Shown here: in pieces, positions 291-44,724 of the stretch
Position numbering within the stretch: position 1 is the stretch's first letter
Layout of the letters: the number at the start of each line of letters is the position of its first letter
Source of the DNA: a virus
Lineage: Duplodnaviria; Caudoviricetes
Virus record (IMG/VR): IMGVR_UViG_3300036943_000278
Coordinates: 1 to 45,227 of that record
DNA: 45,227 bases
Strand: one strand, 5' to 3'
The notes under the pieces: model-generated
Told to the model about the DNA's origin: nothing
The model's input: the letters and a program-made list of their open reading frames with translations, nothing else
Databases searched by the model: none
Position numbers and translations under genes: made by a program

Positions 291-305
291 GTAATCTGAG
301 ATTAC
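291..305. promoter_or_regulatory. Dispersed palindrome copy 1 (GTAATCTGAGATTAC)
   Basis: Matches GTAATYYNRRATTAC, flanked by GC and AC. Confidence 0.85.
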
Positions 306-411
306 ACCCTCTCCGGCCACGGTGCCCATTATCCCTACCTACCTAGACCGGGCCAAATCTATCTCAACTAATACCTAGACATACCCCACCACCCAGCAAC
401 CCATAAGCCAC

Positions 412-440
412 AAAAAAGGAGGCGACTTTTGCCGCCTCCT
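412..440 (-). terminator. Intrinsic terminator for 474..893
   Basis: AGGAGGCG/CGCCTCCT stem followed by U6 on the minus strand. Confidence 0.85.
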
Positions 441-473
441 CGGTTCAAATAGGTGCAGGGGTGTTGGTTCAAT

Positions 474-893
474 CTACATCAAATCCTTAACATCAATGCC
501 TTGTTTCAGCAACGCGGCCCGGATCTGTTCCGGCGTGGCCTTGGCCATCGACTTGGCCAGCTTCTCCGCCGGATCGCCTGCCACCCTTGGCGCCTCAATC
601 TTCACGGCGTCAACCGCTGCTTGGCGATCTCCATCCTTCACCTTGTTGGTCCGCCTCGCAGTTTCACGGCAATCAATGACCACTTGAGCCAGTGCCGTCA
701 GCACCACGGCCTCCACGCCGAAATGGTCGATCACTTTCTGGCACTCCTCCTCCGTGGCCGCCGTTGGAAACCACTCCGGCACTTCCACCGTAAACGCGGT
801 ATCCCTCGGCCCCTCATCTGCCTCCATTGCCTTGTTGTCCGTCGTCGGCAACAACCTATCCTGCATGATCTGATAAATGGACTTCTGTGCCAT
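474..893 (-). CDS. Hypothetical protein, paralog of 38572..39009
   Basis: GGAGG RBS before the ATG at 893; has its own promoter and terminator; C-terminus EKLAKSMAKATPEQIRAALLKQGID resembles that of the 38572 protein. Confidence 0.85.
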   Translation of the reverse strand: MAQKSIYQIMQDRLLPTTDNKAMEADEGPRDTAFTVEVPEWFPTAATEEECQKVIDHFGVEAVVLTALAQVVIDCRETARRTNKVKDGDRQAAVDAVKIEAPRVAGDPAEKLAKSMAKATPEQIRAALLKQGIDVKDLM

Positions 894-953
894 CTTGGAA
901 ACCTCCAATTTTGTCCCCCTGCCCCCTATTTACCTATCAATGAACGTACTCAA

Positions 954-982
954 ACCATACCTCAACCCCGCAACCTTGTCAA
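954..982 (-). promoter_or_regulatory. Sigma70-type promoter
   Basis: TTGACA-17bp-TATGGT on the minus strand. Confidence 0.75.
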
Positions 983-1115
983 CTACTTCACGAAAAAAGT
1001 TTCCCGCCGGGCAACCGCCCACTCCAACCAACCAATCCACCCCCCCCCCTTGGGTGGGTGGGCTTGCTGTGTGTTAGAATCCTGCACTAAATTACTGCGT
1101 AGCATATTGGGGTAG

Positions 1116-1151
1116 GTACCACAATGTGCCACAAGGTGCGGTTTGCCACAA
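1116..1151. promoter_or_regulatory. Tandem RCCACAA boxes upstream of the late operon
   Basis: GTACCACAA-T-GTGCCACAA then TTGCCACAA; the same 10-bp-period pair occurs at 44620-44638. A -10-like TATAGT at 1200-1205 has no good -35. Confidence 0.55.
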
Positions 1152-1253
1152 CTCCACCGCCCACCTATACACCAGCTCGGCTTTTTGTTATCCTGCCCGT
1201 ATAGTGATGGTGGATAATAAGGAGTTGGAATATGGGAAGGTTGTCTGAGGGGT

Positions 1254-1625
1254 TTGGTCATCATGGTGGTTGTGGGCCTGTTGGCTACAGCGGCATTCGC
1301 GAGGCAGATGGGCAAGGTGATTGATGCCACAATGAATAGTACCGAAAATGCGAGCATTAGTGCCGACGAGTTCGGGACGTATCATCAAATTGAATTTTCC
1401 TGCTCTGCAATGAATGCGGGGGCCAAGTATAACGTGTATCTTCGGACTAGCGAAGATGGCGAGTATTATGCCCTGCGCGATAGTGACGGGAACGAGATTC
1501 AGTTGCTCATGGAAAATGGTACATTGGTCTATGGGATAAATGCGCTGGCCCGGTCGATTCTACTCGAACCGGATGGCTGGGGCGGTGTTGGAGAATGCAC
1601 CGGGGTTTATTCGAGCAAGGAATAG
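1254..1625 (+). CDS. Hypothetical beta-rich protein with N-terminal signal peptide
   Basis: VIMVVVGLLATAAFA/RQ hydrophobic leader with an AxA site; exact start uncertain. Confidence 0.75.
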   Translation: MVIMVVVGLLATAAFARQMGKVIDATMNSTENASISADEFGTYHQIEFSCSAMNAGAKYNVYLRTSEDGEYYALRDSDGNEIQLLMENGTLVYGINALARSILLEPDGWGGVGECTGVYSSKE

Positions 1626-1636
1626 AAGGGATGTTA

Positions 1637-2113
1637 ATGATGACTCGCCTCATTTTTGTCCTCGCCCTGCTCCTGACCATGCTGGCTTCTCCAGTCCATG
1701 CCCACACATTCGCGTTCTTCTCGGTCACGGCCACGGCTGGCGAGGTTGCCGGTCTTGAGATTGTGGAGTCGTTGACCGGGAACCAATATGGCGATGACGC
1801 CTATGTGCTCAGGCGCGGGAATTTTTTGAGCCAGCCGTGGAATCCGAGTTTTCCGAGCAATGTCAAGGTCTTCTATGAGTCTCCTGATTTAATTCTGCTT
1901 TCGGTTGTGGTCCCGGACTGGTGGGCGAATATATTGCCCGAGCTTCCGCAGGGGTTTTTGCCCGAGACGGGCGTCACGTATCTGGGCGAAAGCATCGAGG
2001 ACGTGCGGGCCGCGTATCCGGAGCTTGCCGGCATGGAGATTTACGATTGCCTTACCGTCGAGGGCGAACCGGCCACGTGCGAGCGGCCGATTCTGAGGGG
2101 GTACGCATGGTAG
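1637..2113 (+). CDS. Hypothetical protein with Sec signal peptide
   Basis: MMTRLIFVLALLLTMLASPVHA/H; start reassigned from 1595. Confidence 0.75.
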   Translation: MMTRLIFVLALLLTMLASPVHAHTFAFFSVTATAGEVAGLEIVESLTGNQYGDDAYVLRRGNFLSQPWNPSFPSNVKVFYESPDLILLSVVVPDWWANILPELPQGFLPETGVTYLGESIEDVRAAYPELAGMEIYDCLTVEGEPATCERPILRGYAW

Positions 2114-5820: not shown

Positions 5821-5835
5821 GTAATTCAAGATTAC
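5821..5835. promoter_or_regulatory. Dispersed palindrome copy 2 (GTAATTCAAGATTAC)
   Basis: Lies between the TerL stop (5819) and the next ATG (5845). Confidence 0.85.
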
Positions 5836-8525: not shown

Positions 8526-10021
8526 TGGCCCTTGATCCAACCAAACCACTGGATACTGTTCCCATCAAGGATTTACCCAGCTACATCCGGGAAACTCGTG
8601 AGTATATTGAGGACCGCTGGGTTAACAATGTCTCATTCGAATCGGGTGTGTCTGACAACGAGCCTGTGTATTATGACACAGCTACGGGTACATGGAAACA
8701 ATCTCTCGATGGTGATGCGAATCGGGGATTTTTCCATGGTTTTGCTGACGTGACCAACTCGAGAGTTGTCCTGTATGGCACTATTGAAAATGACACTTGG
8801 GATTGGACTGCCACGTCCACAATCTATGTGTCAGATTCAGTGCAGGGTGGCTTGACAGAAGTCGACACTGGCCTCCCTGTTGGTGTCGCAGTAACAGCAA
8901 CGGAGATACTCATTGATACACAGCTCAATGTTGGTGTATCGGACATTGTTGCGGAAATCACTGCAGCTCGCGGTGGTGAGGTAGATCTGGATACACGCCT
9001 TGACAATATTGAGTCTGACGTAGCCACCAACGAGAGTGACCTCGATGTAGTTGAAGCGGAAATTATCGCTGGGCGTGGTGGGGAGGTTAATCTTGATACA
9101 CGCTTTGATAATATCGAAACTGAAATCACCGCGGCGCGTGGGGGTGAATCCGATCTAGACACTCGTTTAGACGGCATTGACGATGAAATATCTGCTATTG
9201 ATACAATACTCCCCGCCTTGACTGGGCATGCCAATAAAGTAGCCCTAGTAAAGGATGATGAATCTGGTTTTGAGTGTATAGCACTCACTGCCGGAGATGG
9301 TATTGCAATTGCGGCTGATGGGGTTACTATCTCTACTGACGTAGATTATTTACCTCTCACTGGAGGTACACTAACGGGTAATCTCACTCTCGATGATGGT
9401 GTTACAAATTCACCTTATCTGCAATGGGTTGGTGGCACCAATGATGATACTATCAGCCTCCGTTTAATTGAAGGTGGTAGTGTTAACACTAGTGTGTTAG
9501 AAATGATATTGTGTGATAATGGGGGCAACTCTCAATTTCGTATAGACAGTGCAGATGGAACAGAAGTGTTCAAGGTCACATCTGCGGGGGATTTAACCAT
9601 TACTGGTGCACTTTCAAAAGGTTCTGGCACATTCAAGATTCCGCATCCCTTAGATGAAACAAAACATTTATATCATGGCTTTATTGAAGGTCCTCGATAT
9701 GACTTGATATATCGTGGTACGGTGGTACTTGTTGATGGCCAGGCTGAAGTAAATATAGACACGGTAAGTGGAATGACTGCGGGTACATTCGAGGCACTTA
9801 CCCAAAATGCTGAAGTTCTTGGTCTCCATAACAAAGATTCCTTTGATCGTGTAAGGGGCGAAATTTCCGGGGCAACCCTAATCATTTACTGTGAGGATGA
9901 GACTAGCACCGACGAAATTAATTGGGCTATAATTGCCGAGCGTGCTGATACCCATATCCTTGCCTTAGATATAACTGACGAAAATGGTTGTCTTATTCCT
10001 GAACAGGATAAGGAGGAATAG
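8522..10021 (+). CDS. Tail fibre protein
   Basis: Three coiled-coil repeats EITAARGGEVDLDTRLDNIE, YLPLTGGTLTGNL motif, C-terminal SKGSGTFKIPHPL domain. Confidence 0.8.
   Translation: MMALDPTKPLDTVPIKDLPSYIRETREYIEDRWVNNVSFESGVSDNEPVYYDTATGTWKQSLDGDANRGFFHGFADVTNSRVVLYGTIENDTWDWTATSTIYVSDSVQGGLTEVDTGLPVGVAVTATEILIDTQLNVGVSDIVAEITAARGGEVDLDTRLDNIESDVATNESDLDVVEAEIIAGRGGEVNLDTRFDNIETEITAARGGESDLDTRLDGIDDEISAIDTILPALTGHANKVALVKDDESGFECIALTAGDGIAIAADGVTISTDVDYLPLTGGTLTGNLTLDDGVTNSPYLQWVGGTNDDTISLRLIEGGSVNTSVLEMILCDNGGNSQFRIDSADGTEVFKVTSAGDLTITGALSKGSGTFKIPHPLDETKHLYHGFIEGPRYDLIYRGTVVLVDGQAEVNIDTVSGMTAGTFEALTQNAEVLGLHNKDSFDRVRGEISGATLIIYCEDETSTDEINWAIIAERADTHILALDITDENGCLIPEQDKEE
8954..9182 (+). 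repeat. Intragenic coding repeat (three ~20 aa units)
   Basis: Peptide repeat with diverged synonymous codons. Confidence 0.8.
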
Positions 10022-11352: not shown

Positions 11353-11697
11353 ATGTCTTTAGTCGCTGAACAGAACAAGTTCTTGCAAGATGTTGTAAAG
11401 CTCCTCGTAAAAGCATGGGAAATGGGCTTTACCGTTACAGCAGGAGAAGTCTATCGGCCAACGGAAATGCAGGCAATTTATGTGAAAACAGGTAGATCTA
11501 ACACCATGCATAGTAAGCACAACCTACGCCTTGCAATAGATCTCAATATATTCAAGGACGGCCAGCTTACCTATGATCCTGAAATCATTGCTCCTTTAGG
11601 AACGTATTGGCAAAGTCTTTCGAGGAAAAACAAATGGGGTGGTAACTTTTCGACATTGAAGGACACACCCCATTTCGAACGCAATCCCTGGGCGTAA
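11353..11697 (+). CDS. Endolysin, peptidase M15 family
   Basis: SKHNLRLAIDL (SxH-x6-D) and WGGNF...DTPHFE motifs. Confidence 0.9.
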   Translation: MSLVAEQNKFLQDVVKLLVKAWEMGFTVTAGEVYRPTEMQAIYVKTGRSNTMHSKHNLRLAIDLNIFKDGQLTYDPEIIAPLGTYWQSLSRKNKWGGNFSTLKDTPHFERNPWA

Positions 11698-11708
11698 TTC
11701 AGGATTAC
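11694..11708. promoter_or_regulatory. Dispersed palindrome copy 3 (GTAATTCAGGATTAC)
   Basis: Overlaps the endolysin stop codon, upstream of the scaffold gene. Confidence 0.85.
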
Positions 11709-17415: not shown

Positions 17416-17430
17416 GTAATTCAAGATTAC
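17416..17430. promoter_or_regulatory. Dispersed palindrome copy 4 (GTAATTCAAGATTAC)
   Basis: Intergenic, within 17409-17442. Confidence 0.85.
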
Positions 17431-19015: not shown

Positions 19016-20512
19016 ATGGCTAAAACAACGAATAAAATTGTGCAGGCAGAGTCCAATGGTCGTAGTAATGCCAAAAATGCACGATCTTCTGCATTAGGCC
19101 CAGGCCAGTTCATTGATTCCACTTGGCTGGAGTTGATGAATAGGTATAAACCAAACTTGGTTAAGAACAAATCTCGTGAACAAATACTCAATTTGCGTAC
19201 GGATAAAGCGTTGGCTAACGAGATGGTTCAACGCTATGCAGATTATAACCGGCAAATGCTGGAACAACATGGCTTACCCACTGATGAAGGTGCGATATAT
19301 CTTACACATTTCCTTGGGCCGAGTGGTGCAAGGGCAGTATTATCTGCTGACCCAACACAACCATTTACTCCAGAGTTATATCCTGGGGCAGATAAAGCGA
19401 TTAAGTCTAATAGGCCGGTATTGGCAGGACGTACAGTAGGTGACGTGCAACGATGGGCTCGAAATAAAATGGGAGTAGCTGACATGGCTAATGATAAAAA
19501 GAAAGGGAAGAAGGCTACGGTGGACGTGGAATTCATGCTCGAGCCGCCAGTGATTAAGGATTCTGGTGCAGGGATGCCGGCCACACGCCACCATAGTGCA
19601 TCTGGCCCTGTAAAAAACCCCCCGAAGCAAGTAATAGATTTGGCTAAGTTAACGAAACAAGCTCGTCTTCAAGCAACCAAGAAGAAGGATGCGGAGATTA
19701 TGGCCAATGGCCCTATGAGAGGTCAGGTGGCCCCAACAGATTTAGCTCGCCAAGCCCAACGGCCTTCTGGTGCAGGTGGTGCAACAGATAATCCCAAAGG
19801 GCTTGTGGCTGAGATGTTGGAAGGTTTGTATAACCAACGCGCATCGGAACAGGGATTTCTTGAACTCCTCGAACTTGTCAATAATGCCAATGCGTCCGGG
19901 ATTACTCGAAAGGATGAATACCTTGGCGGGCGTGGTGCGGGCATAATGGACGCTCTGATTGGGTTTGGTGGAAAGCTCGGGCAGGCATTAACCAGCTTTA
20001 GCGGTCACCAAGGTGCAATGGGTGCAGCTAATGTCATGAATGATTATGGGCAAGCAGCAATCATGCGCCCATATCTCAATGCCCTAGCTGGTGGTGAGGT
20101 ATATGATACACCTGCAGGACTGAATCAGGAAGGTACGAAGCTCATGCAGGATGAGCTGCTAAAAACCTTGGCTATGGATCAGGAAGAAGGGAAGGCTAAT
20201 AAGACTCTGGCAGCTACATTATACAAAATCGCTGAGGATGCTGAGGCAGCTAAGGCGGCGGCTCAGTTTGACGCCAGAAAATTCCTTACCGAGTTTGGGC
20301 TAGCCCAACAGAAAGCATCGGAAACAGGTCGACATAATTTGATGATGGAACAGCTTATGGGCCAACGAGCCATGAATCAAAATAATATATTGGATCAGCT
20401 AGAAACAATGTATGAGCTAGCCAATACCTTGCCAGAAGAAGACCGCGATCTTGTCAAGGATCAAATTCGCCTCGAGCTCTTGGGACTGTTAGGTAATCAG
20501 GGAGCTGAATAA
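19016..20512 (+). CDS. Internal virion protein with N-terminal lytic transglycosylase (lysozyme-like) domain
   Basis: IVQAESNG...SSALGPGQFIDSTW...YLTHFLGPSGA. Confidence 0.8.
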   Translation: MAKTTNKIVQAESNGRSNAKNARSSALGPGQFIDSTWLELMNRYKPNLVKNKSREQILNLRTDKALANEMVQRYADYNRQMLEQHGLPTDEGAIYLTHFLGPSGARAVLSADPTQPFTPELYPGADKAIKSNRPVLAGRTVGDVQRWARNKMGVADMANDKKKGKKATVDVEFMLEPPVIKDSGAGMPATRHHSASGPVKNPPKQVIDLAKLTKQARLQATKKKDAEIMANGPMRGQVAPTDLARQAQRPSGAGGATDNPKGLVAEMLEGLYNQRASEQGFLELLELVNNANASGITRKDEYLGGRGAGIMDALIGFGGKLGQALTSFSGHQGAMGAANVMNDYGQAAIMRPYLNALAGGEVYDTPAGLNQEGTKLMQDELLKTLAMDQEEGKANKTLAATLYKIAEDAEAAKAAAQFDARKFLTEFGLAQQKASETGRHNLMMEQLMGQRAMNQNNILDQLETMYELANTLPEEDRDLVKDQIRLELLGLLGNQGAE

Positions 20513-26500: not shown

Positions 26501-26781
26501 CTGACTTCGGCGATATGATTACACAGTTTGCTGGGTTCAGTCCTGCCCACCGTGACCTCACAGAATTCTTCTGGCGTAGAGCGGAGGAAAAGAAATGGCG
26601 GGAGAAGAAAGCATTATATGGAGTCAGGTTGCGGAATAAGATTATCAACAAAGAGTCCGTGGATGATAAGGACTGGAATGAGTTTTGGGGGTTAAAAAAT
26701 AAGGCCATGGGTGCTGGCTATCCTTGGTCAGCCAAATCACCCTATGACCTTATCAAGAAGATCTATACAGATGGAATTTAG
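20512..26781 (+). CDS. Large internal virion/ejection protein with zincin motif
   Basis: 2089 aa, last late gene; TLMHEIGHTVFH...EIFAE. Confidence 0.75.
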   Translation: MANDKSTPATNTVDRRRLLKRAIQFRVDGGQLTEDTAWKFVDEEFNQAGISPTAQERSDLMRQAFPQFEPGLMDVGRALAGELAGGTAKGLMDVAALIPTIAGALGSEAGKESSEEIRSYGQKAKEALESDWQPAENDILGRGVEGIVGFAGETVPFMVGSAIPVVGQTAAMARVSQGAKVLQRARKLQKAGFVDDAAKLMKTVSNTKKVGIGRAAGEFSQAATKKWGEKLLASEASSGRIMQTLGKIAASRGGQKVAFAAGVGGPWGVGLGLQNPETQQALVEQRFGDAAKVMRNELALNIAGGAIIEGMLFPAIAKGYRAFKTPLESLIQRHAQRSMSAKTNFDQVVRNPMNGNPELLADYDRIMMLDDLKKRLDVANMDGDREAALAIREKIAAIQPPNEARTAEVMYQAIRNLHKAYMDKAVGEGSLMDYIEQFHHNDIFAVKDILDAADFMNNARRTMRRSLANVPEAQQRQVWPFLNEVSRFRKNLLDGINRLEPTTVSIAKKLRSGRALTDFEQVRWDTLKKASTFSPAERPIDIPALQVIARLDLDVARNALGGTAELNYASTKRLQKAVAAMNKDLDNELSLRTILQKYFMSPSGVNRDAVWWYLSGTKQDLDALVIPDELHQFVVHSKGKTIKQVETELLDYLEAAITKEAKTVGMNPAEYAVDMMATPATIANTSIAERLMMEYFPGTFTRYPIEPTQKMPGGILDTFAQLNTTAIATNYNIGYDKKTVLSVLNKQITALKKERASLIPTYGAYHTTAQSIDRQLSALQITKVFMEATDTKGKFPAQLVHLATNMVGADGRASRVFGRVQLDPMASDQVNTLMHEIGHTVFHAMPDDFKEAFIKTIDHINQTNPDALRNVMGHARWDYLPEWSRNAAEIFAESFGQLGSDHFYDHMALNLPNIISDMPEDAAKVLMEQIDNIQSFATVHPDMPAEMRELVAAFFPKVKSNLAYRTDPLVRQMKDKMAKIRFEMTDQVARQMHEPTFLEYSFVTNVFPESFFHYGQRTVTAAGGAKRKVPMAKLTKEGAEYFKTTFKEDIPVGTDLEDVTMMVRDRLHVIADEVALAKTLPSQTRDPLIMLDRLLQTKAELDWRLNDNLALVKNEEGQVVNYFKWRMGGDARVKEFESIFERRVPEWMSQMLGEDKDKAKVALDELYQFMTDIEKFKEGIQNLHPTIWDNLDTSVLDTPLRNGLRAIAEQIPAMEPLYKLSARMGPISRMLNTPQYWARKHPHMYPIFSAMRSMPAHIRETQAYLLDNKDDILGLSKGSKTLQELAQLHHTANRIRGTFSRFGKEAKTIMNAARDMMWEGNRYANLRVDNDTLLNDHLIWRNEKGVVAKDRMVDTLVNEYGYDAGVAEAAYGYYKGAVETLHWVNEQRLRFLAQKRAATTNEIRQQQMESSKLLGYMPQSQRGKYVVQAYRKNKKGKSVLAHIYFTDKWDDAKQALAKLKKEGTYIDTPEGYQHISPGELRIKNIARAKERATDMYFGASPTHMKNFLEEALEKANLDDPTYVDKIKDQLGKLIGQEMKAGQLLRHSRHRENVTGFEKDNLFNAIFDYVSAWSSYTARTDALEQSLKSMRYVKNDPRLYKEANKLIRDMTMGASEEAKWSLRIRRTGFMVQLAGNLATAIIQLTQNPVMGVPRMAMDGIPRSGRQLSRAMWDIVHEDIKRMKFTKSFRTAMKGGKTDGYKSGLGDLELKALEQGYLSGQTYSNYADAMLGQMRQNGGGLSEQLLNASSLPLRYMESLNRRSTLLAAFRYHNKRLLKQGMDADRAYREALSRASTIVDDAHVIYEKANLPSWARGEGIAPLAGRTFYIFKQYTHGYFQMLEYLAKNGGPGEKAAVQSFAMLATLGGMKAVPGWDVADKLVSMIAGKSTEELLAETAGYEQSMGIIQGPLSAILPTHLGDRLNPTPWNGKDAVFFATYDDIVKTADQFKRGDYWGMAENFPLAPKFVKNLAKGLEQYKHGYRTRGGKLISVDGFEPVKSDFGDMITQFAGFSPAHRDLTEFFWRRAEEKKWREKKALYGVRLRNKIINKESVDDKDWNEFWGLKNKAMGAGYPWSAKSPYDLIKKIYTDGI

Positions 26782-26966: not shown

Positions 26967-27348
26967 AATAACCTCCGAGTACAGTTGTAATTTCAGATTG
27001 CGCCCAGGTGTCTAGTAATTCCGAGTGGGTATAGAATGTAATAGGATGGCCACGCTTGCAGCACCAATCTATTTCCATTGAGATACCCGCCGATTCATAC
27101 CAGCCCGGAAGCTTCAACAAGCCAAAATCACTAGAAACTGCCATAACTGCTTCGTTCATGGTTTGCCAGAATAGTGCATCTCGAGGGAGACTATGTGCAA
27201 CTGCGATTGGATGCCAATAGGCAATAGGGCTAAAGACGAATGTGTTTAGCTTGCGTGTGAGGATGGGGATCACTTGGCTAACCATCTCATACCGCGCTTG
27301 CATTATCTCTTCATCTACGTGTGTATACGGGGACATTAAATACAGCAT
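26932..27348 (-). CDS. DUF1937 / nucleoside 2-deoxyribosyltransferase-like protein
   Basis: LYLMSPYT, VFSPIAYWH and LPGWYESAGISMEI motifs. Confidence 0.8.
   Translation of the reverse strand: MLYLMSPYTHVDEEIMQARYEMVSQVIPILTRKLNTFVFSPIAYWHPIAVAHSLPRDALFWQTMNEAVMAVSSDFGLLKLPGWYESAGISMEIDWCCKRGHPITFYTHSELLDTWAQSEITTVLGGYYGIGICESCWL
26987..27001. promoter_or_regulatory. Dispersed palindrome copy 5, one mismatch (GTAATTTCAGATTGC)
   Basis: In the 3' end of the DUF1937 gene, 20 nt upstream of the 26966 start; minus strand reads gcGCAATCTGAAATTACa. Confidence 0.65.
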
Positions 27349-28557: not shown

Positions 28558-31011
28558 TTATGACTTATTGTGTACATCATCCCACGCTTTCTTGATGAGG
28601 GCAGGATCAGCGGCTTTGATCTCTACCATACCGTTAGGATTTTGCTCGGATTGGCGTCCCCAGTTATAGCCAATCTTGAAATCAATACCAATGGTAAACT
28701 CACGGCCATCCTTTCCAGTCAATTGGATAGTCATGAGTTCCTCAAGGCGGGGGATGATATAGAGTGCATTGTCGAGGGTTGCGGGGAATTGGTTTAACAA
28801 AGAGTCATGCACTGTGCCGAGAAGCTGAAAGTCACGCTCGTAGAGATCATCTGCTTGCGTGATCTTCACTAATGCACGGTTGAGTACCTCCGCAACGGTG
28901 GACTGTGGCTTGAAGGCATAGGCAGCTTTGAAAGTGTGGTCATTGAGCATACCTAAGAATAACCGATGCCGTCCGAATAGGTTCAATAAACGACGTGAAC
29001 GGGTGAGTTCTTCTCGAATACTGTTATGCCAGCGGCGAAGTCCAGGGTAGCGGGAATGATACGCATTTAACAGGAGCTTCGCTTCTCGTTCCGGCAACTC
29101 AGTTTGTAAGGCGAATGTTTTATACCCCATGTCATAGTTAGACGCGTGGACAACTTTCTTCCCAAGTTGTCGTTGGTCTTGCATTACCTGATCCATAGTA
29201 ACGTCAAAGATGTTTGAGGCATTGTAGGTGTGGACATCCACGCCGGATTCAAATCCCTCAATCATCTTTTCATCCCCGGCAAGGTAAGCTACCACTACGG
29301 CTTCGGCTTGTTTCTCGTCAGCTTCGAGCATAATGTAGCCGTCATCTGCGTGGTAATAGGGCTTGATTGCAGGGGGTTGATTTTGTAGATTTGTGCCTGT
29401 ACCAAACAACGTGGAGCTAGATGACAGTCGCCCAGTTTCTGTTCCCGCGATGTTGTAAGAACATCGGAGGCGACCGTCACTATCTGCTCGGTTGACCAAA
29501 TAGGTAGATGATAGCTTTTTATATTTACGTATTGACTGAATCAATGTGGCTTCTTCATAACCACGCCGAGATAGTCGTTTGAGTGCGGTGTCATCAGTGG
29601 TCCAATTGCCTGTTTTTCTGTTGGTGTAGGGCTTGATCTTTTTTTCCACATAGAAATAATGCTGGAGCTGTTTGGACGAGTTGGGATTCAATTCCTTCCC
29701 GGCCATTTCATTGAGTTGCTTCTGCATTTCTACTACGGCTTTATCCGTAGCTTCCTTGAGTTGCTGGATGCCCACACGATCTGTGCGTATGCCACGGTAT
29801 TGCATTTCCATTAGTGGGGTATGAAGATCCATGAGAAACCAGAATTCCGTCAATTGGCCATAAGATTCTAACTCATTCATAAGAGTGGGGTAGAGCTCAT
29901 GCACATACGCGGCGTCTTTGCAATTGTATTGCCAGAAACGTGTGTAATCAGACACATTGCGCCAGTCTTTGCCCTCGTCCTTATAATATGGGTGGGTGGT
30001 GTAGTAACTGACCAATGCGTCGAGGCCTTTTGGCAACTCAGCATAGCACAAATGATGTGCCAACATGGAATCGAATGTGAAATTGTTGGTGAGAATAGAC
30101 ATGGTTCGGAGGAGGAACGTGAAGTCAAACATGCCATTCTGGGCGAACTTAGAAATCTGTGGGTCGGATAGAATTTTAGAGATGAGTTCCCATATGATAA
30201 CTTCTTCATCTTCTGTGAAGTAATGCCCCTCGGGGCCGTAGAATGGAATACACATTACTTGATCCGCCCTGCCTTTGGTGAAGGCAATGCAGGAAGTCTG
30301 TGTATTACGAAGTTCGATATCTACGGACGTTGTGAGTTTACGATTATAAATTTCCTCCAACCATGCATAGGCTTCATCAAATGTAGGACTAATATGCATG
30401 TTGATGACTGGCTCATTGAAGCCATGCTCAACAATATGGATGGCCTTTGTCAAATCGATCTGCAATACAAATTGCATCTTCGGGTCACGGTAGCCAATAC
30501 AGCGAGCGGGGTGGATGGTGCAGAGTAACACTTTACCTGCCAACTTGGTGTGTTTGTCGCCGAGCCATTGCACAATAGCCGGATCGTTGTGGGCATAAAT
30601 GCTACCACGATATTTATCCACATGGACATTTCCAGTGAGTGCATGTAATGGTGTTTCACCACAAAGGATCACTACCTTGGCAGAGCTTCGCTCAATTGTA
30701 TCGAGTAAGCGATCAAGCAGAGCTGTCCATGCTTCATGGTGGAAACCCTTGCGGGTCCATAGTTTACTCGTATTGTTTTTTGGTATTTGTGTCTGGCAAA
30801 AGTTATCTATGTAGCACTTCGTTCGTGGGATGCCTACATAGGACAGGGCCATGTCTAATCGTGTACCAGCCTGCCCAGTGAAAGGTACGCCAGACTGCAT
30901 CTCAGTCACACCGGGTGCTTCGCCTACAATGAAGTAATCACAATGGCCCAAATCACCAGAGCCATACACATCAGTTTCTAGAGGATCCCACTCAGTCCTA
31001 GCGGCAAACAT
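28558..31011 (-). CDS. polA: Family A DNA polymerase with N-terminal uracil-DNA glycosylase-like domain and 3'-5' exonuclease
   Basis: IVGEAPG...PFTGQAG and TIHPA (UDG family 4-like); SVDIE, QNGMFD, YNCKD (exonuclease); TGRLSS, ADEKQAE, KKVVHASNY, TVHDS (polymerase). Start moved to the ATG at 31011 after AAGGAG. Confidence 0.93.
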   Translation of the reverse strand: MFAARTEWDPLETDVYGSGDLGHCDYFIVGEAPGVTEMQSGVPFTGQAGTRLDMALSYVGIPRTKCYIDNFCQTQIPKNNTSKLWTRKGFHHEAWTALLDRLLDTIERSSAKVVILCGETPLHALTGNVHVDKYRGSIYAHNDPAIVQWLGDKHTKLAGKVLLCTIHPARCIGYRDPKMQFVLQIDLTKAIHIVEHGFNEPVINMHISPTFDEAYAWLEEIYNRKLTTSVDIELRNTQTSCIAFTKGRADQVMCIPFYGPEGHYFTEDEEVIIWELISKILSDPQISKFAQNGMFDFTFLLRTMSILTNNFTFDSMLAHHLCYAELPKGLDALVSYYTTHPYYKDEGKDWRNVSDYTRFWQYNCKDAAYVHELYPTLMNELESYGQLTEFWFLMDLHTPLMEMQYRGIRTDRVGIQQLKEATDKAVVEMQKQLNEMAGKELNPNSSKQLQHYFYVEKKIKPYTNRKTGNWTTDDTALKRLSRRGYEEATLIQSIRKYKKLSSTYLVNRADSDGRLRCSYNIAGTETGRLSSSSTLFGTGTNLQNQPPAIKPYYHADDGYIMLEADEKQAEAVVVAYLAGDEKMIEGFESGVDVHTYNASNIFDVTMDQVMQDQRQLGKKVVHASNYDMGYKTFALQTELPEREAKLLLNAYHSRYPGLRRWHNSIREELTRSRRLLNLFGRHRLFLGMLNDHTFKAAYAFKPQSTVAEVLNRALVKITQADDLYERDFQLLGTVHDSLLNQFPATLDNALYIIPRLEELMTIQLTGKDGREFTIGIDFKIGYNWGRQSEQNPNGMVEIKAADPALIKKAWDDVHNKS

Positions 31012-31252
31012 ACATGGACTCCTTGTCATCATAGTCGATGTTGATAATTTTATCACACTTGGTGCAGATGACTGATGTAGTGCGCATCTTGGTGGCCTTG
31101 GATAATGTGACGTCACCCCAGGTAAAGACAGGGATGTTCTTATCACCGTTGAAATAAAGCCGGTGTGTGCCGAACTCAAAGGTCAGCGGCACATACACGT
31201 GGTTACACGCTACCGGAGTCTTCGTCGCTGGCTTGGTTGTCTTGGTTGTCAT
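30998..31252 (-). CDS. Small putative Zn-binding protein
   Basis: CNH...CTKC ligands; GGAG RBS. Confidence 0.6.
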   Translation of the reverse strand: MTTKTTKPATKTPVACNHVYVPLTFEFGTHRLYFNGDKNIPVFTWGDVTLSKATKMRTTSVICTKCDKIINIDYDDKESMYVCR

Positions 31253-32627
31253 TAGACTGCTCCATTAAGTTGTGCATACGGAGTTTGAATGTGGACAGGT
31301 AATGTGGGGCATTAATGTCTGCACCACAAGGACGCATGTGATACTTGGCCGCGGCGACCATACTGTTACCCGAACCTGCAAAGGGGGAAAAGAAGTAAGT
31401 GTAGGGTCGAGCAGTTGCACCGATCAAAACATCGTACAGACCCTCGATGGGTTTCTCCCACTGATGGACCTTACGGGAACCGGCAATGTTTTTTGCAGAT
31501 ATGGCAGCGTTCACCATGTGATTGAGTCTAGGTTTTCCCCATGCCATAAGGAGAAAGAATTCGTAGTTGGATACTAGGTTTGTGGAAACAGTGTTACAGC
31601 CACCACCGCCAGGTTTGTACCATATGCCTGGACGTTGAATGCGGAAGCCATGCTTTTTGAAAAGCTGTTGAGTGTACTCAACCCATTCATATCCTACCCA
31701 TACAATTACCCACGAGTCAGGTATGAGCTTATACTTGGACATTTCAACTAAGCGCGACATGGCATCTTGGAATTGGTCAGGTGTCCAGTCTTTAGCGCGT
31801 GAGGCTGTCTTGGACATTTGGCCATATGTTGTGTCGTAGTTGATGGCATAAGGTGGGTCGAGTTCCATAAGACCAATGGTCTTGTCCTCAAATTCTGTGA
31901 GTACCTCATCCCAGTTGCCATGATGATAGAGAAAGGTCGGAGCCGTTGCAGCGGGTACTTTGGGGGAGGGGACAGGGGTTCCAGCTGCATCCTCGGCGGA
32001 TGACTCCGACCCTTCTGGAATATCCTCAATACTTACTCCAGCCTGTTGGAGTACACTGAGGATATTGTCATTGTTATCATCCAGCAATTTGGCTGCTTCA
32101 ATATCTTGGGCTTGCTTAACCAGCCCGTTGTATTGCTGTTTAGCCTTGGACTTAGTATCACAGTTACGGAGAGAGGGGAAGGTTTGGATGGCAACCCAAA
32201 GATCGACATCTTTTTGTATCGTGTTTCTCGATGTGCCGAGGAGTCTGGCTGTATCGGCATACGCCCAATCCGATTTTGTATCGGCATGGTAGGCATGGAC
32301 ACGGGCACGAAGTTCTGTTTCCTCTGCCCAATGGAATGGTGCCCGCGCTGTATTTTCCACAAGTTCAATAGCGAGCTTCTGGTCAGGTGTGAGGCCGGGG
32401 ATGATGCGGGCAGATATTGTTTCCCATTCTAACAATTGGGCCGCACGATACCTGCGTTCACCGGCCACGAGTTGAAGGTCACTGTCGAGGATGATGGGAT
32501 TCAATAGGCCAGATACAGCCATGGAATTTTTCAATTCATCTAGATTCCCAACATCCTGGCGGACCCGGTCGAGAATGGTAATGTCAGCAAGGGGAATTTC
32601 TTGGACGTGGTATTGTTTATTCGACAT
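31203..32627 (-). CDS. ParB-like CTPase domain + HTH + beta-class N6A/N4C DNA methyltransferase fusion
   Basis: GLLNPII...VAGERRYRAA...ELVENTAR (ParB N-domain); AYADTARLLGTSRNTIQKDV (HTH); DPPY followed by SPFAGSG (MTase motif IV then motif I). Confidence 0.9.
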   Translation of the reverse strand: MSNKQYHVQEIPLADITILDRVRQDVGNLDELKNSMAVSGLLNPIILDSDLQLVAGERRYRAAQLLEWETISARIIPGLTPDQKLAIELVENTARAPFHWAEETELRARVHAYHADTKSDWAYADTARLLGTSRNTIQKDVDLWVAIQTFPSLRNCDTKSKAKQQYNGLVKQAQDIEAAKLLDDNNDNILSVLQQAGVSIEDIPEGSESSAEDAAGTPVPSPKVPAATAPTFLYHHGNWDEVLTEFEDKTIGLMELDPPYAINYDTTYGQMSKTASRAKDWTPDQFQDAMSRLVEMSKYKLIPDSWVIVWVGYEWVEYTQQLFKKHGFRIQRPGIWYKPGGGGCNTVSTNLVSNYEFFLLMAWGKPRLNHMVNAAISAKNIAGSRKVHQWEKPIEGLYDVLIGATARPYTYFFSPFAGSGNSMVAAAKYHMRPCGADINAPHYLSTFKLRMHNLMEQSNDNQDNQASDEDSGSV

Positions 32628-33365: not shown

Positions 33366-33801
33366 TTTTCATCTCCTTGGTTATGGTGTAATTCGAGATT
33401 ACGCGCTTGGTTGGCGTGATTACATATTCCAATATAGTATGGTCGTCATGGAGATTATAGTAATTCATGGCACGTTTAGCGCCTTTGAAAGTTCTGTATA
33501 TGTAGCCCGTGGGAGAATATTGTGTGGGCTGCTTGGGGGCAAAAAAGAGTTGTGTATCATCGTGTTGTATACGGTAGACATACGCAGGACAATTCATGCA
33601 TATTTTCGTGCCTGCTTTGGTAGTGCAATAACCACTGATGTATGTTTTGTTACGACGAATGAGTTTCTTTTCCACTAGACGACGCAAAAGCCTTTCCCCA
33701 TAGGTACGATTGCAGGCGTGTTCGGATATTATTTTTGTCATGGCTTTCTGGGTTGCAAAAATATCCCGTAAAAATTTTATCTCAATATTACCAATCTTCA
33801 T
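33358..33801 (-). CDS. Hypothetical protein with winged-helix-like N-terminus
   Basis: LLRRLVEKKLIRR...YCTTKAG pattern; AT-rich. Confidence 0.5.
   Translation of the reverse strand: MKIGNIEIKFLRDIFATQKAMTKIISEHACNRTYGERLLRRLVEKKLIRRNKTYISGYCTTKAGTKICMNCPAYVYRIQHDDTQLFFAPKQPTQYSPTGYIYRTFKGAKRAMNYYNLHDDHTILEYVITPTKRVISNYTITKEMKNG
33388..33402. promoter_or_regulatory. Dispersed palindrome copy 6 (GTAATTCGAGATTAC)
   Basis: Minus strand reads gcGTAATCTCGAATTACac, 22 nt upstream of the 33365 start. Confidence 0.85.
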
Positions 33802-38571: not shown

Positions 38572-39009
38572 CTACGCGAGCGAGGACAGGTCGAACCCGG
38601 CCTTCATGAGGGCGGCCTTGACAGCCTCGGGGTCCTTGCCGGACATGGCCTTGGCCAGCTTTTCCTCGGTGGACATGACGGTGCGGACGGACGGTTGCCA
38701 TTCGGACCAGGGCGTGATCTCGCCGTCCTCGCCAGTGAAGCCTTGCTGGATGGCCGAATCGTCGTACTTCGGATCGTTGTTGTCATCAGCGGCTTCGAGC
38801 TGACTACGGACCTTGGAACGCAGGTCGATCACGGATTGCTGCTGGAACTTCTGGACGATCACTTGATCGCCGACGAGTTCGCGGAGTTGGTCGAGGTCCT
38901 CGATTTTCATGCATTCCGGGGTTTGTACCTCGACTTCGCGGGGCAGGAACTCCGGCTTGTCGGGGCCGCCATTGGCCTTGGTCTTGATGGTGTTGGTGAA
39001 TTCGGGCAT
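38572..39009 (-). CDS. Hypothetical protein, paralog of 474..893
   Basis: AAGGAGG RBS, strongly biased codons, EEKLAKAMSGKDPEAVKAALMKAGFD C-terminus. Confidence 0.88.
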   Translation of the reverse strand: MPEFTNTIKTKANGGPDKPEFLPREVEVQTPECMKIEDLDQLRELVGDQVIVQKFQQQSVIDLRSKVRSQLEAADDNNDPKYDDSAIQQGFTGEDGEITPWSEWQPSVRTVMSTEEKLAKAMSGKDPEAVKAALMKAGFDLSSLA

Positions 39010-39428: not shown

Positions 39429-39443
39429 GTAATCCCGAATTAC
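39429..39443. promoter_or_regulatory. Dispersed palindrome copy 7 (GTAATCCCGAATTAC)
   Basis: Contains the stop codon of 39440..39646 and abuts the next ATG at 39425. Confidence 0.85.
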
Positions 39444-39929: not shown

Positions 39930-40382
39930 TTAGATTTTGCCCTTATGTAGTTCTTCTGAGAAGAAAAAGTCGTCAATCTCTCCGTTATCACAATTAGGGC
40001 AAAAATAGGTTGTTTGTAGTGTAGGAATCTCCCAAGATTCTTGTTCTACCTCGGTTTTGCATTTAGACAATGGGCCTATCCAGCCACATGAATTACACCT
40101 GCCGTAGTTGGGCAAGTCATCAGGTTGGTCTGGTATTTGCATTGTTAGCTCACCTAAATTAAAACTTTTTGATTCCTTTTCTACATAGATATAGCCACGT
40201 GGGAAATAGCGTAGCTTACTTTCGTCCCAATATTCTTCCGGGTACCCGAAACAGAACTTGGGACCGAATATTTCAAACACCTTAGCACGATCACCATTGA
40301 CAACTGCTACGCAGTCTTTATCGAATATTTTGCCGTCGATGCGGTGAATGTGTTCTTGTCCAAACGTGACGAAGGTTTTCAT
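39930..40382 (-). CDS. Hypothetical protein with C-terminal Zn ribbon
   Basis: CNSC...CPNC; AGGAG RBS. Confidence 0.7.
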   Translation of the reverse strand: MKTFVTFGQEHIHRIDGKIFDKDCVAVVNGDRAKVFEIFGPKFCFGYPEEYWDESKLRYFPRGYIYVEKESKSFNLGELTMQIPDQPDDLPNYGRCNSCGWIGPLSKCKTEVEQESWEIPTLQTTYFCPNCDNGEIDDFFFSEELHKGKI

Positions 40383-40391
40383 AGTTATCTC

Positions 40392-40613
40392 CTAGTAAAG
40401 CCCGCCAGGGTTATTTATTGAGAAGATGAAAATAGCTAAAAAGAAAATAGCTCCTGCTAGTGCGCCTATGATCACGTTCCTATGCAAACGTCTACCATAA
40501 TCATCAGCATCACCTTTGGTAGAAGTACAAGCCAAACATATTGCTGCTCCGAAACACATACACATAGCCGTAATCAATAGAGGAATGATAATATCGAAAA
40601 TAGTTTCTTGCAT
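40392..40613 (-). CDS. Membrane protein (2 TM)
   Basis: Hydrophobic segments; AAGGAGG RBS. Confidence 0.7.
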   Translation of the reverse strand: MQETIFDIIIPLLITAMCMCFGAAICLACTSTKGDADDYGRRLHRNVIIGALAGAIFFLAIFIFSINNPGGLY

Positions 40614-40856
40614 TTAATTATCCTCCTTGAGCACAGCGTGGGCTTTTGCGACAATAGGATCAGAATTATGATCACTATGCGGTGGGGGCAAAAGTAATCG
40701 GATGATTTGGGCTAATTTTTCGCACCGCTTGGTCATGTCGTGGAATAAATTACGAATATCTGCATAGTTTTCATCTTGCCAGGGACACTGCTCATTCCAA
40801 TCTGCGTCAGGTGAGTAGGCATTTCTGCCTAGACGTTTGTAATAGCTTCGTTTCAC
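40614..40856 (-). CDS. Hypothetical protein
   Basis: GAGG RBS, GTG start. Confidence 0.55.
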   Translation of the reverse strand: MKRSYYKRLGRNAYSPDADWNEQCPWQDENYADIRNLFHDMTKRCEKLAQIIRLLLPPPHSDHNSDPIVAKAHAVLKEDN

Positions 40857-40877
40857 TGTTAACCTCTGAAATATCTT

Positions 40878-41048
40878 CTAATGGGCACCAGGAGCGTAGA
40901 GTCTTTCTCCATCTGTCATGGTTGTATATGGTAGGGTTTTTCCTGCCATTCCGCAGTATGGAATGTTCGCAACCTTTCCAAAGCTCCCGCAATGGTCCAA
41001 ATGAGGACACCCAGAGCACTTTTTTATTCTGATCATTTTGTCTGGCAT
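40878..41048 (-). CDS. Small Cys-rich protein, 56 aa (possibly frameshifted at the C-terminus), not in the ORF track
   Basis: AAGGAG RBS; MPDKMIRIKKCSGCPHLDHCGSFG...YCG. Confidence 0.6.
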   Translation of the reverse strand: MPDKMIRIKKCSGCPHLDHCGSFGKVANIPYCGMAGKTLPYTTMTDGERLYAPGAH

Positions 41049-41052
41049 GAGA

Positions 41053-41355
41053 TTATCTCCTTAGTGCGTAGTAAATTGCACAATCTTCTGCGTTCTCGCA
41101 ATCAGTTTCGATAGCATCGCAGAAATATCCAGCTCCGTTGTAAGTCTTCCAAGGACAGGAACGTCTAAATTCCTCCCAATCATCTTGCTGGTCCCTGGTG
41201 TACTTTTCCTCTGCCGCTTTCCAACCATGCCGGAATGCTTCTTCCTCTTCTAGAGTATACATATTAGTAGGATAAACAGGATACGCTTGTCCGGGGTGGT
41301 ATGAGCTGAATCCTGCAGAAAATACTCGGTCAAGAGATTTTCTGTTAACTGGCAT
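41053..41355 (-). CDS. Hypothetical protein
   Basis: AAGGAGG RBS; Cys-rich C-terminus. Confidence 0.7.
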   Translation of the reverse strand: MPVNRKSLDRVFSAGFSSYHPGQAYPVYPTNMYTLEEEEAFRHGWKAAEEKYTRDQQDDWEEFRRSCPWKTYNGAGYFCDAIETDCENAEDCAIYYALRR

Positions 41356-41889: not shown

Positions 41890-41901
41890 GGTTACTCCTT
41901 A

Positions 41902-43010: not shown

Positions 43011-43036
43011 GCTATTTCCTCCTTTGATAGGTACAC

Positions 43037-43249
43037 TTATTGGTTTGTCAACTCTTCTTTCAACGCTGATAACGCACGATTAAAGAAATGCCGTTCTTGT
43101 GGAGGCAGTTTGTAGTAAAGTTCAGTAAATACTGCTTCTACCACGTGTGGTCTATTGTAGTAATGTTCTACAAAGATTGCTTTGAGCTGTTCCTTAAGTT
43201 TATTTGTCTTCTCCATAGCCGCTTTCTTTCTTTCAGCTCTAAGGCCCAT
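43037..43249 (-). CDS. Hypothetical protein
   Basis: GGAGGAG RBS. Confidence 0.65.
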   Translation of the reverse strand: MGLRAERKKAAMEKTNKLKEQLKAIFVEHYYNRPHVVEAVFTELYYKLPPQERHFFNRALSALKEELTNQ

Positions 43250-43324
43250 CGTTTGTCTCCTCCAATTAAAGATTAACCCATAGTTCTGCCCACAAGTAAC
43301 CTTGTGGGCAGTGGATGAGTTGAT

Positions 43325-43639
43325 CTATTTGGATGTCTCCATAACCTCGGACAATGCTTCATCCATGTCCCATAGATGGCATTCAATCGCATCCATGACG
43401 CGGGACATTCGGGCAATGAAGCTTTGGGAGTCGCTTTCACTGCCTTTATTGGCCGCTTCTTGCGCACGTGGGCCAGAAAGGTAGTTGGTCAGGCCCTCCA
43501 CGTCCATAGAAACCCTGCCAGTTTTATGGCAGATGTTTAATAGGCGATCATAGAGACTTTCCAGTGGTGTGCTGAGTGCTCTTGATGCCATATCCTGTGG
43601 TTTTTCTACAACATTGTGTTCTTTTACAGATTTGTCCAT
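43325..43639 (-). CDS. Hypothetical helical protein
   Basis: AAGGAG RBS. Confidence 0.65.
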   Translation of the reverse strand: MDKSVKEHNVVEKPQDMASRALSTPLESLYDRLLNICHKTGRVSMDVEGLTNYLSGPRAQEAANKGSESDSQSFIARMSRVMDAIECHLWDMDEALSEVMETSK

Positions 43640-43665
43640 GATGGCTCCTTTAGGGATAGTCCCTG

Positions 43666-43860
43666 TTAAATGTTCCTTTGGATTGTGCCAAACACCAGCT
43701 GCACGATACGTCCGTTATGAAGTTGAAACTTCAATTTGGGTTCAGTGGACTTATTGCCCACATTATCCTGTCGGGAAACACACATGGCTGTTGTACCATA
43801 GTATTTCCCCTCAGGATTGCCCAGCACTGTAACCACATCTCCCTTTTAAATAATAGCCAT
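43666..43860 (-). pseudogene. 64-codon gene interrupted by an in-frame TAA at codon 5
   Basis: AAAAGGAG RBS, then MAII*KGDVVTVLGNPEGKYYG...QRNI*. Confidence 0.6.
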
Positions 43861-43875
43861 CTTGTTCTCCTTTTG

Positions 43876-44226
43876 CTATTCGATCAAACCAAGCTGCCGC
43901 GCCACGCGCAACTGCTCATCCTTTGACATCTGCTCGAACTCCTTGGCGAATTGGGCTAAGGACATAGTCCTTTTCTCCTTTACCTCACGGGGTGCCCGAG
44001 CTTCCTTCACCTTCGTGATGACCTTGCAGGTCTGCCACATCTCTTTTTCCAGAGCAATACGCAAAGCGCCAATCCGCTCAGCCATGAGGCCCGCGAGCTG
44101 GCGCTTCTTGTTGAGCGCACTGATTTGCGCGCTGTAATAATCCCTCGATGCGCGTAGATTGGTTTCCATCTTACCTAGTTCCATTACCGTTTGCTCTATC
44201 TCTTCCCATGTAAAATCCAGCTCCAT
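43876..44226 (-). CDS. Hypothetical coiled-coil protein
   Basis: GGAGGG RBS before the ATG at 44226 (MELDFTW). Confidence 0.7.
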   Translation of the reverse strand: MELDFTWEEIEQTVMELGKMETNLRASRDYYSAQISALNKKRQLAGLMAERIGALRIALEKEMWQTCKVITKVKEARAPREVKEKRTMSLAQFAKEFEQMSKDEQLRVARQLGLIE

Positions 44227-44257
44227 CGTGGTTCCCTCCAGTGTGGGTAGTATTAAT

Positions 44258-44277
44258 GGGCGGGTACCCTCCCGCCC
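44258..44277 (-). terminator. Hairpin after the first early gene
   Basis: GGGCGGG-6nt-CCCGCCC followed by ATTAAT. Confidence 0.45.
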
Positions 44278-44284
44278 CCTCATG

Positions 44285-44560
44285 CTATACGTCGGCAAAT
44301 TCGATAATTGCCTTGTTAAGCTCCTCTATACATTGTTCCATCTTTGGCACATCACCTGCGTAATATGCCCGTGTAATGCACCGTAAGAGATCTTCTAACA
44401 CTGGTATGTATGCACATTTGATTATTTGTCGTGATCGCGGTGACAAAGTATACTCACCGTTTTTTGCATTAAGCAACGTATGCTTTGTCCGAACAGCATC
44501 ATCACTTAGTTGCTGTAACAATGTGGCGGCCTCGTAGATGAATTTCTCTTGCTCATTCAT
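44285..44560 (-). CDS. First early gene, hypothetical
   Basis: AGGAG RBS; directly downstream of the strong promoter. Confidence 0.7.
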   Translation of the reverse strand: MNEQEKFIYEAATLLQQLSDDAVRTKHTLLNAKNGEYTLSPRSRQIIKCAYIPVLEDLLRCITRAYYAGDVPKMEQCIEELNKAIIEFADV

Positions 44561-44616
44561 GGGCTAACTCCTGTAGTTTGCAGGTTGTGCTATTGTGTAC
44601 TTCAACCTGTGAACCA

Positions 44617-44645
44617 ATAGTACCACAACGTACCACAAATGTCAA
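44617..44645 (-). promoter_or_regulatory. Strong early sigma70 promoter with tandem GTACCACAA boxes in the spacer
   Basis: TTGACA-17bp-TACTAT with extended -10 TG. Confidence 0.85.
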
Positions 44646-44709
44646 ACACTAACCCAAATTTATTCCCCCATCAGTTTGCCCGCTAATGGTTCCCCCTACA
44701 ACCCATCCC

Positions 44710-44724
44710 GTAATCCGAGATTAC
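44710..44724. promoter_or_regulatory. Dispersed palindrome copy 8 (GTAATCCGAGATTAC)
   Basis: In the right non-coding end, upstream of the early promoter. Confidence 0.85.

Follow-up and report, generated by a model that had tools for sequence, protein, structure and literature searches.

The DNA analyzed here, referred to below as the window, is the whole 45,227-nt record of a tailed virus (Caudoviricetes; IMG/VR record IMGVR_UViG_3300036943_000278), with direct terminal repeats of ~146 bp. It contains eight copies of a palindrome and a minus-strand gene at 31203..32627 coding for a fusion of a ParB domain, a helix-turn-helix (HTH), and a β-class amino methyltransferase (MTase). The palindrome, GTAATYYNRRATTAC, is present in exact form at positions 291, 5821, 11694, 17416, 33388, 39429, and 44710, and an eighth copy with one mismatch starts at 26987, in agreement with an initial annotation of the sequence. 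With 0.00 exact copies expected and 0 of 100 shuffles matching, the count is far above chance, as had been claimed. When the window was scanned blindly for spaced palindromes, GTAAT-N5-ATTAC was the top result. In a weight matrix search, the eight sites scored 23.5 to 30.7 bits, while the best other position reached 11.1 bits; given this clean break, the 9.6-kb gap in the series does not conceal a ninth copy.

Six of the eight copies are located at or over a stop codon or in the last 60 bases of a gene, consistent with the gene-end placement originally described. Site 2 (5821..5835) lies 2 nt past the stop codon of the terminase large subunit gene and 9 nt ahead of the next ATG; site 3 (11694..11708) is over the endolysin stop codon, ahead of the ribosome site of the gene that precedes the capsid gene; site 4 (17416..17430) is at or over a stop codon, at the junction of two genes of the structural arm; and site 7 (39429..39443) is over a stop codon in the early arm. 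Site 5 (26987..27001, one mismatch) and site 6 (33388..33402) are within the final 60 bases of a gene, the former near the convergence point of the two gene arms and the latter at the 3′ end of a winged-HTH (wHTH)–like gene, 760 bp upstream of the ParB-MTase start. Site 1 (291..305), whose GTAAT-N5-ATTAC core has wider G/C flanks, and site 8 (44710..44724) are in noncoding DNA at the left and right ends, respectively. These two were described as one near each terminus; both are indeed terminal, but they are really a pair ~660 bp apart across the terminal repeat (left copy, 1..146; right copy, 45083..45227; both on the plus strand) and therefore close together in a circular or concatemeric form. 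Site 8 lies 65 bp upstream of a sigma-70–like promoter match (TTGACA-17-TACTAT, 44617..44645, minus strand; a consensus match only) at the head of the early arm. Seen by eye on the minus strand at ~412 to 445, a GC hairpin with a run of six T residues after it puts site 1 beyond a probable terminator.

The regular spacing noted initially is also evident statistically. Sites in the window are distributed more evenly than if they had been placed at random at gene ends (largest gap, P = 0.011; coefficient of variation of 0.39, P = 0.003) or anywhere (P = 0.030 and P = 0.009, respectively). The largest gap of the window does span the giant gene, as observed initially, but this is not a general rule, being true of only 13 of 54 genomes.

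The fusion protein is 474 amino acids (aa) long and is encoded by a core gene of the clade located just upstream of the DNA polymerase gene. All of the domains and motifs initially assigned to it are present. Residues 1 to 100 (32328..32627, minus strand) form the ParB nucleotide-binding domain with GLLNPI, AGERRYRA, and ENTAR motifs; residues 122 to 143 (32199..32264, minus strand) form the HTH with the recognition helix SRNTIQKD, in which R134 is the equivalent of Caulobacter ParB R173; and residues ~230 to 450 (31278..31940, minus strand) form the MTase domain, in which motif IV (DPPY) lies ahead of motif I (SPFAGSG). The order of motif IV before motif I (FxGxG) defines the β class (PMC7544214). 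Pfam gave matches to ParB_N (E = 5e-11) and N6_N4_Mtase (E = 9e-7) only, and a C-terminal ParB dimerization domain was thus not found in the window fusion. Residues 122 to 139 can be aligned with the HTHs of Noc and Thermus Spo0J; the closest solved relatives of the N-terminal part are Noc and Spo0J; and the family profile matches Noc, Spo0J, ParB, KorB, and β-class MTases including CcrM and M.MboIIA. The linker between the HTH domain and the MTase is 21 to 54 residues long in the family. Catalytic and nucleotide-contacting residues are conserved in 111 fusion proteins, where G56 and R59 are invariant and N92 and R95 are kept in at least 90%; DPPY is kept in 73 of 82 proteins. A single-sequence structure model of the fusion had a pLDDT of 37, too low for use.

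To place the window in a family, we assembled a set of 95 sequences, either genomes or long contigs, made up of the window, 12 records from GenBank, and 82 from IMG/VR, through searches with the fusion protein, capsid, and primase, retaining longer contigs; 80 of the 369 and 80 of the 207 confirmed fusion-protein loci were listed. The records are mostly 90 to 100% complete by estimate, with some fragments and with small gaps given as N; Roseobacter phage CRP-810 is represented by 50 of its 57.7 kb. A single blind motif procedure was applied to all 95. Motifs were ranked by an information score S, adopted because counting refined sites picked low-complexity motifs in some genomes; its maximum in 48 shuffled genomes was 28. 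A dispersed palindrome with S ≥ 50 was detected in 75 of 83 genomes with the ParB-HTH-MTase fusion versus 1 of 12 relatives without it, although the fusion was present in 33 of 33 close relatives picked by primase, so that the 12 negatives all come from more distant clades and are not independent. At S ≥ 90, the numbers were 64 of 83 and 0 of 12, and the same split was obtained with an exact-dyad cut of 6.6 set post hoc, after the data had been seen. The palindrome co-occurs with the fusion, and its retention by relatives lacking the fusion was not seen beyond the single exception, CRP-810.

The negatives (Kuura, PaMx41, vir526, P5, EBPR3, Tiera, CRP-810, and G101 to G105) had no match to three fusion profiles, and G101 to G105 had no match to PF02195 either. 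The 83 positives include three near-duplicates and about five doubtful motif calls (G015, G055, G062, Mel-JY34, and VS-ABTNL-3, of which G015 and VS-ABTNL-3 have better exact dyads). Vibrio phage VS-ABTNL-3 and Microcystis phage Mel-JY34 are isolated phages carrying the fusion gene, with motif calls among the weaker ones. A targeted look at low scorers revealed the family motif in G076 and G099 and none in G072 and G060; imperfect-palindrome seeding, which gave false positives in the negatives Kuura and G105, was used only for G072, G076, and G099. MW202554 (L073) was considered as a ParB-MTase–negative genome with a motif and rejected, since Pfam shows a divergent ParB-MTase at 573-1853, with the MTase match in two stretches; it has its own five-copy palindrome and was counted as positive. 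Two temperate phages with a ParB-MTase of another type (one was translated, and no HTH was seen in it) have no dispersed palindrome. The palindrome of CRP-810 (L075; 1705-16969 and 44190) is of the GTGTAT-N8-ATACAC type and is probably a repressor operator; this phage carries an integrase and no ParB-MTase in the available 50 kb.

The sequence of the palindrome differs from phage to phage across the family, the median number of sites per genome being 13. In the closest named record, Desulfofustis phage LS06-2018-MD01, the same fusion is found in the same place (27% identity), with nine copies of GTCCCA-N3-TGGGAC, unlike the window palindrome; no methylome of this phage was found in the available text of two pink-berry papers. 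In the Desulfofustis-like clade, the palindrome spans 23 bp; its outer bases are CTAT/CTTT or GATC/GTTC, and its core varies (GTTTAA, ATTAAA, GTTCAA, GGGGA, GGTAA, GAATAA, GTCCCA, and others). In the Vibrio/Microcystis-like clade, the motif, ATTAC-N6-GTAAT, is even-centered. In 60- to 68-kb phages that have the fusion in common and a different capsid, the helix SLGGLS is accompanied by GTTCA-N4-TGAAC, whose half-site is the one seen with xxGG helices in the 45-kb clade. Several family motifs, for example, TGTTCAAA and TGTTTCGA, resemble the parS arm TGTTTCAC (PMC7383237). An exact search of viral contigs with the extended motif of the window returned no matches, so that no close relative with the same site was available. 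The 60- to 68-kb phages also have a second, clustered palindrome of the CATTTAAA-N5 type, with a repeat distance of ~600 bp (L021, 2593-3830; G013, 39958-41196), which is distinct from the GTTCA-N4-TGAAC tiling site.

Site placement was assessed in 905 sites from 70 genomes (S ≥ 50, with five rows dropped as duplicate or doubtful), genes being called by crude tiling of open reading frames. The largest gap was below that of random gene-end placement in 54 of the 70 genomes, with a median of 7.5 kb; together with the even spacing in the window, this bears out the proposal that the sites tile the genome. Only 28% of site cores were wholly within a called gene, compared to 90% of positions. The sites that do lie deep inside genes are unevenly distributed: their density is 15.5 per 100 kb in genes of at least 4 kb versus 2.7 to 4.7 in shorter genes, and such long genes hold 48 of the 93 deep sites while making up 17% of such sequence (P = 6e-14, with genomes not independent). 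In 41 of the 48 cases, the site falls in the central 60% of the gene. A site is present in 38 of 57 genes of at least 4 kb; the 6.3-kb gene of the window holds none. That a site is written into coding sequence where no junction is offered is a prediction of selection for DNA coverage, and we regard it as the most telling feature of the layout.

Departures from the consensus broke a base pair 1066 times and were compensated 51 times, from which it follows that the palindrome is read as duplex DNA and not as an RNA hairpin. To find the protein that reads it, motif and protein distances were compared in 51 de-duplicated genomes with odd-centered motifs and all core genes (of 57 with S ≥ 90). After core-protein distance was removed, the inner six motif positions correlated with the recognition helix of the fusion (partial Mantel 0.29, P = 0.005), compared to at most 0.14 for any other protein or segment. 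Among 4309 eight-residue windows from 13 proteins, residues 132 to 139 were first both for the inner positions (0.40; next region, 0.36) and for the whole half-site (0.339; next, 0.333). Paired changes were observed between close kin: SHAT/GGTAA in G033 versus SPMT/GTAAA in G046, at 81% core identity, and SKAS/GTTTAA in G045 versus SQPA/GATC in G047; in a third pair, G049 and G029, helix and motif are also both changed. Changes in helix and motif are also correlated over 25 independent pairs (rho = 0.56, P = 0.003). In Caulobacter ParB, R173 reads G, while a Gln at the same place in Noc reads A (PMC7383237). The Gln-A pairing is seen here as well: Gln at residue 134 is accompanied by A in 4 of 5 genomes, compared with 1 of 49 (P = 8e-5), on separate branches. 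When His was grouped with Arg, a grouping picked post hoc, the counts were 7 of 11 versus 1 of 43.

Six small window genes, including both ribbon-helix-helix (RHH)–like genes and the wHTH-like gene, have no homolog in the 94 other genomes, which disfavors the RHH and wHTH proteins that had been named as alternative owners of the sites. Taken together, the palindromic sites are real, are spread along the whole genome, accompany the fusion across a large phage family, and vary in step with its recognition helix, although less clearly so once kinship is corrected for. We predict from these sequence comparisons, with high confidence, that the ParB-HTH-MTase fusion is the binding partner of the palindromes; this confidence comes in part from the prior that a ParB HTH binds palindromes of this kind.

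The initial annotation pointed to the absence of ParA and hence to a misfit with classical partitioning. This stands across the family: ParA (PF13614) was above the cutoff in 0 of 77 records (there were two short subthreshold matches), and a ParA-binding peptide was found in 0 of 83 fusion proteins. Tyrosine integrase (PF00589) was likewise found in 0 of 77 records, serine integrases being outside the search. This is a ParB-site system with nucleotide boxes, an HTH, and a repeated palindrome that nevertheless fails the ParABS partition test. With chromosomal ParB-parS and Noc-NBS it shares the nucleotide domain, an HTH aligning with those of Spo0J and Noc, a palindrome of similar size, and a residue equivalent to R173 that covaries with one base. 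It differs from them in having no ParA, ParA peptide, or C-terminal dimer domain and an MTase instead, and in that the sites are genome-wide rather than confined to the origin region and vary from phage to phage. Inverted repeats scattered over their own replicon are bound by ParB-family proteins also in the case of KorB (OB sites of plasmid RK2) and N15 SopB (PMC5016525), and KorB works at a distance as a CTP sliding clamp (PMC11790492); a sliding clamp is predicted for the phage fusion as well. However, KorB and SopB work with a ParA-type ATPase on plasmids, whereas the phage system has no ParA or integrase, the enzyme is fused, and sites occur inside long genes.

On these grounds, the fusion may be envisaged to act as follows. 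By analogy with ParB, a dimer would read the palindrome with its two HTHs, and, as ParB and KorB do, it would bind nucleotide at the site (CTP, judging by the family), close into a clamp, and leave the site to slide a few kilobases each way. ParB folds bind CTP, ATP, or GTP, and another MTase fusion bound ATP in a published screen (PMC12704722). The anatomy of the protein suggests that the β-class MTase, in place of the ParB C-terminal dimer domain, would complete the ring, facing the DNA enclosed in it; it could do so because it follows the HTH in the dimer-domain position and because β-class MTases are argued to work solely as dimers (PMC7544214). The spacing of the sites, with its median largest gap of 7.5 kb, would be set by the reach of the clamp. 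The clamp-MTase would methylate phage DNA while mostly sparing that of the host, leaving a self-mark on progeny genomes whose simplest purpose would be protection from host restriction.

Judging from the comparative analysis, the palindromes are probably parS-like sites at which the fusion loads as a clamp and from which it spreads. We lean, with some reserve, toward selective methylation of phage DNA as its main job and thus toward the mechanism as a whole. Our judgment is evenly balanced on whether the family marks its own DNA by address and not by target sequence, with a clamp-MTase loading only at a private, fast-evolving palindrome; such palindromes, occurring every few kilobases and even in genes, would then provide genome-selective (cis-licensed) modification, with dozens of natural orthogonal clamp-site pairs in this widespread family.

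A number of results weigh against the fusion as the reader of the site or as a clamp-MTase. As far as binding specificity is concerned, the window’s own Arg134 sits over T, breaking the Arg-G pairing, and Arg alone is paired with G in 2 of 4 cases (P = 0.10). The covariation with the HTH proposed at the outset, which stands as the top of 4309 windows, is weaker once kinship is corrected for: in the 25 independent pairs, tree distance tracks motif change as well (0.68), and the helix has a partial value of 0.24, rank 544 of 3385 windows. Down-weighting of close kin (effective n = 30) leaves the helix columns near the top of the ranking but not first, residue 134 ranking 8th of 2861 for one base, residue 138 3rd, and the triple 133 to 135 5th of 1126. 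For the outer four bases, variation goes with primase and clade (0.50) rather than with the helix (0.17). Co-occurrence has its own weak points, namely the presence of the fusion in every close relative picked by primase and a score below 50 in eight ParB-MTase genomes. In the protein, the usual Asp is absent from motif I in most family members, and Box II is often GGRR instead of GERR, its Glu being variable. The screen of PMC12704722 tested N6/N4-MTase fusions, and none is named in its available text among the 11 nucleotide binders. Many sites are 20 to 30 bp (center to start) ahead of a gene, which also fits regulation. Last, word counts contained no methyl-target signature, avoidance of 4-base palindromes does not differ between genomes that have the gene and those that lack it (−0.31 in both), and some members are almost devoid of GATC, CCGG, or ACGT. 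A relaxation of 6-mer avoidance (−0.51 versus −0.84, P = 0.014) was not used, being driven by two negatives and confounded by GC content and host.

The main rival to selective methylation is gene control of the KorB kind, in which the same protein would load and slide but would serve mainly long-range repression or timing of transcription, the MTase being a local switch or a passenger. The KorB clamp silences promoters from 4 bp to more than 1000 bp away (PMC11790492), and the phage sites are mostly at gene junctions, with the peak of distances at 20 to 30 bp ahead of a start; a site lies just past the capsid stop codon in 43 of 57 genomes and past primase in 27 of 67 (in the window, none follows the capsid gene), and site 8 of the window is close to the early promoter match. 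On the other hand, the longest genes have an excess of sites in their middle parts, some sites lie where genes converge, and a site is present at the start of the fusion gene itself in only 1 of 70 genomes. The window RHH and wHTH genes do not provide a conserved small partner similar to KorA in the 94 genomes (other small proteins were outside the survey), and the MTase is fused and conserved in all members. We consider gene control as the main function unlikely.

A smaller chance is given to coating or licensing, which shares loading and sliding with the methylation clamp and differs from it in purpose alone: the clamp would shield or organize replicating DNA or mark mature DNA for packaging, and methylation would signal to phage proteins instead of acting in defense. 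The even tiling, the closeness of the N-terminal part to Noc and Spo0J, and the persistence of restriction-site avoidance in some members are in line with such a role, as is the correlation of whole half-site motif distance with the small terminase subunit (TerS), single-stranded DNA-binding protein (SSB), and primase (0.20 to 0.26). No membrane- or ParA-binding peptide was seen, however (ParA peptide, 0 of 83), and the inner bases track TerS at no more than 0.14.

It is improbable that another protein (small terminase, primase, a small RHH or wHTH protein, or a host regulator) owns the site and that its link to the ParB-MTase is a clade trait. In favor of this view, kinship confounds the co-occurrence, since the fusion belongs to the core genes (33 of 33); the covariation that remains in tree-aware tests is modest, and outer bases follow primase. 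Yet the window RHH and wHTH genes are without homologs elsewhere in the sample, the motif is found in 60- to 68-kb phages with a different capsid and the same ParB-MTase, and the helix is first of 4309 windows. A host factor is a poor explanation, since the motif differs between phages of up to 81% core identity. The least credible reading takes the palindromes for phage promoters or for RNA hairpins that serve as processing sites or translational operators. It can draw on the next ATG being 9 to 23 nt downstream of five of the eight window copies and on the G/C flanks of several being oriented with transcription, but is contradicted by the 1066 broken versus 51 compensated pairs, by convergent (55 sites between converging genes), noncoding, and mid-gene locations, by the absence, over 575 sites, of a −10 or −35 box at a constant distance, in keeping with the poor fit to a stage-specific promoter noted initially, and by the finding of no RNA polymerase or sigma factor among the window genes.

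In our searches of the open literature, no genome-tiling, phage-specific array of sites was described for ParB-MTase fusions. The pairing of ParB with N6/N4 MTases is published as phage-enriched, with a suggested anti-defense role (PMC12704722), whereas the available text describes no DNA site, HTH, or loading array, and the two temperate examples mentioned above have no dispersed palindrome. Phage ParB proteins that activate thymine dioxygenases also serve DNA modification (PMC13229309), where ParB “directing” the modification machinery is given as an unconfirmed hypothesis; those proteins are without a DNA-binding domain and their nucleotide residues are dispensable, while the fusions studied here have both an HTH and cognate sites. 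When mobile elements carry MTases of broad activity, these need confinement (PMC7736820): M.EcoGII and M.EcoGIX are likewise β-class, mobile-element enzymes whose broad activity is confined (silent prophage; single strands only) (PMC7544214 and PMC7736820), whereas confinement of the fusion MTase would come from the loading site. The trait is real and general, apparently undescribed, and most simply explained as a self-addressed methylation clamp. For phage ParB-enzyme fusions, the site array likely provides the DNA address that had been lacking, and the steering of DNA-modifying enzymes to chosen DNA by ParB becomes directly testable. If the proposal is true, self could be told from non-self without a shared methyl motif or a physical compartment, and site-licensed methylation, if shown, would be categorically new. 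The spacing of sites is a natural gauge of clamp spread, and dozens of helix/site pairs are at hand for studies of ParB specificity and for orthogonal, region-limited methylation tools.

The other window genes, arranged as two converging arms, include those for an SU10-type portal and capsid, a family A polymerase, primase, ligase, Sak4, and an exonuclease. The polymerase (28558-31179) has an N-terminal uracil-DNA glycosylase domain; the two are separate genes in Kuura. The 6.3-kb gene (20512-26781) codes for a 2089-aa virion-type protein for which neither Pfam nor PHROG gave a convincing match, and phmmer matched it in just 4 of 95 genomes. At the left end, 474-908 and 983-1357 (both on the minus strand) are likely real leftward genes; by eye, the end of 474-908 resembles that of 38572-39009, while a homology search with 474-908 found itself only. 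Imperfect inverted repeats rich in GTTGAC/GTCAAC at 86-163, 44950-45035, and 45167-45224 flank or overlap the terminal repeat and are possible terminase or origin signals. Three coding repeats of 63 to 105 bp are located at 8946-9186, in a tail-like gene of 499 aa.

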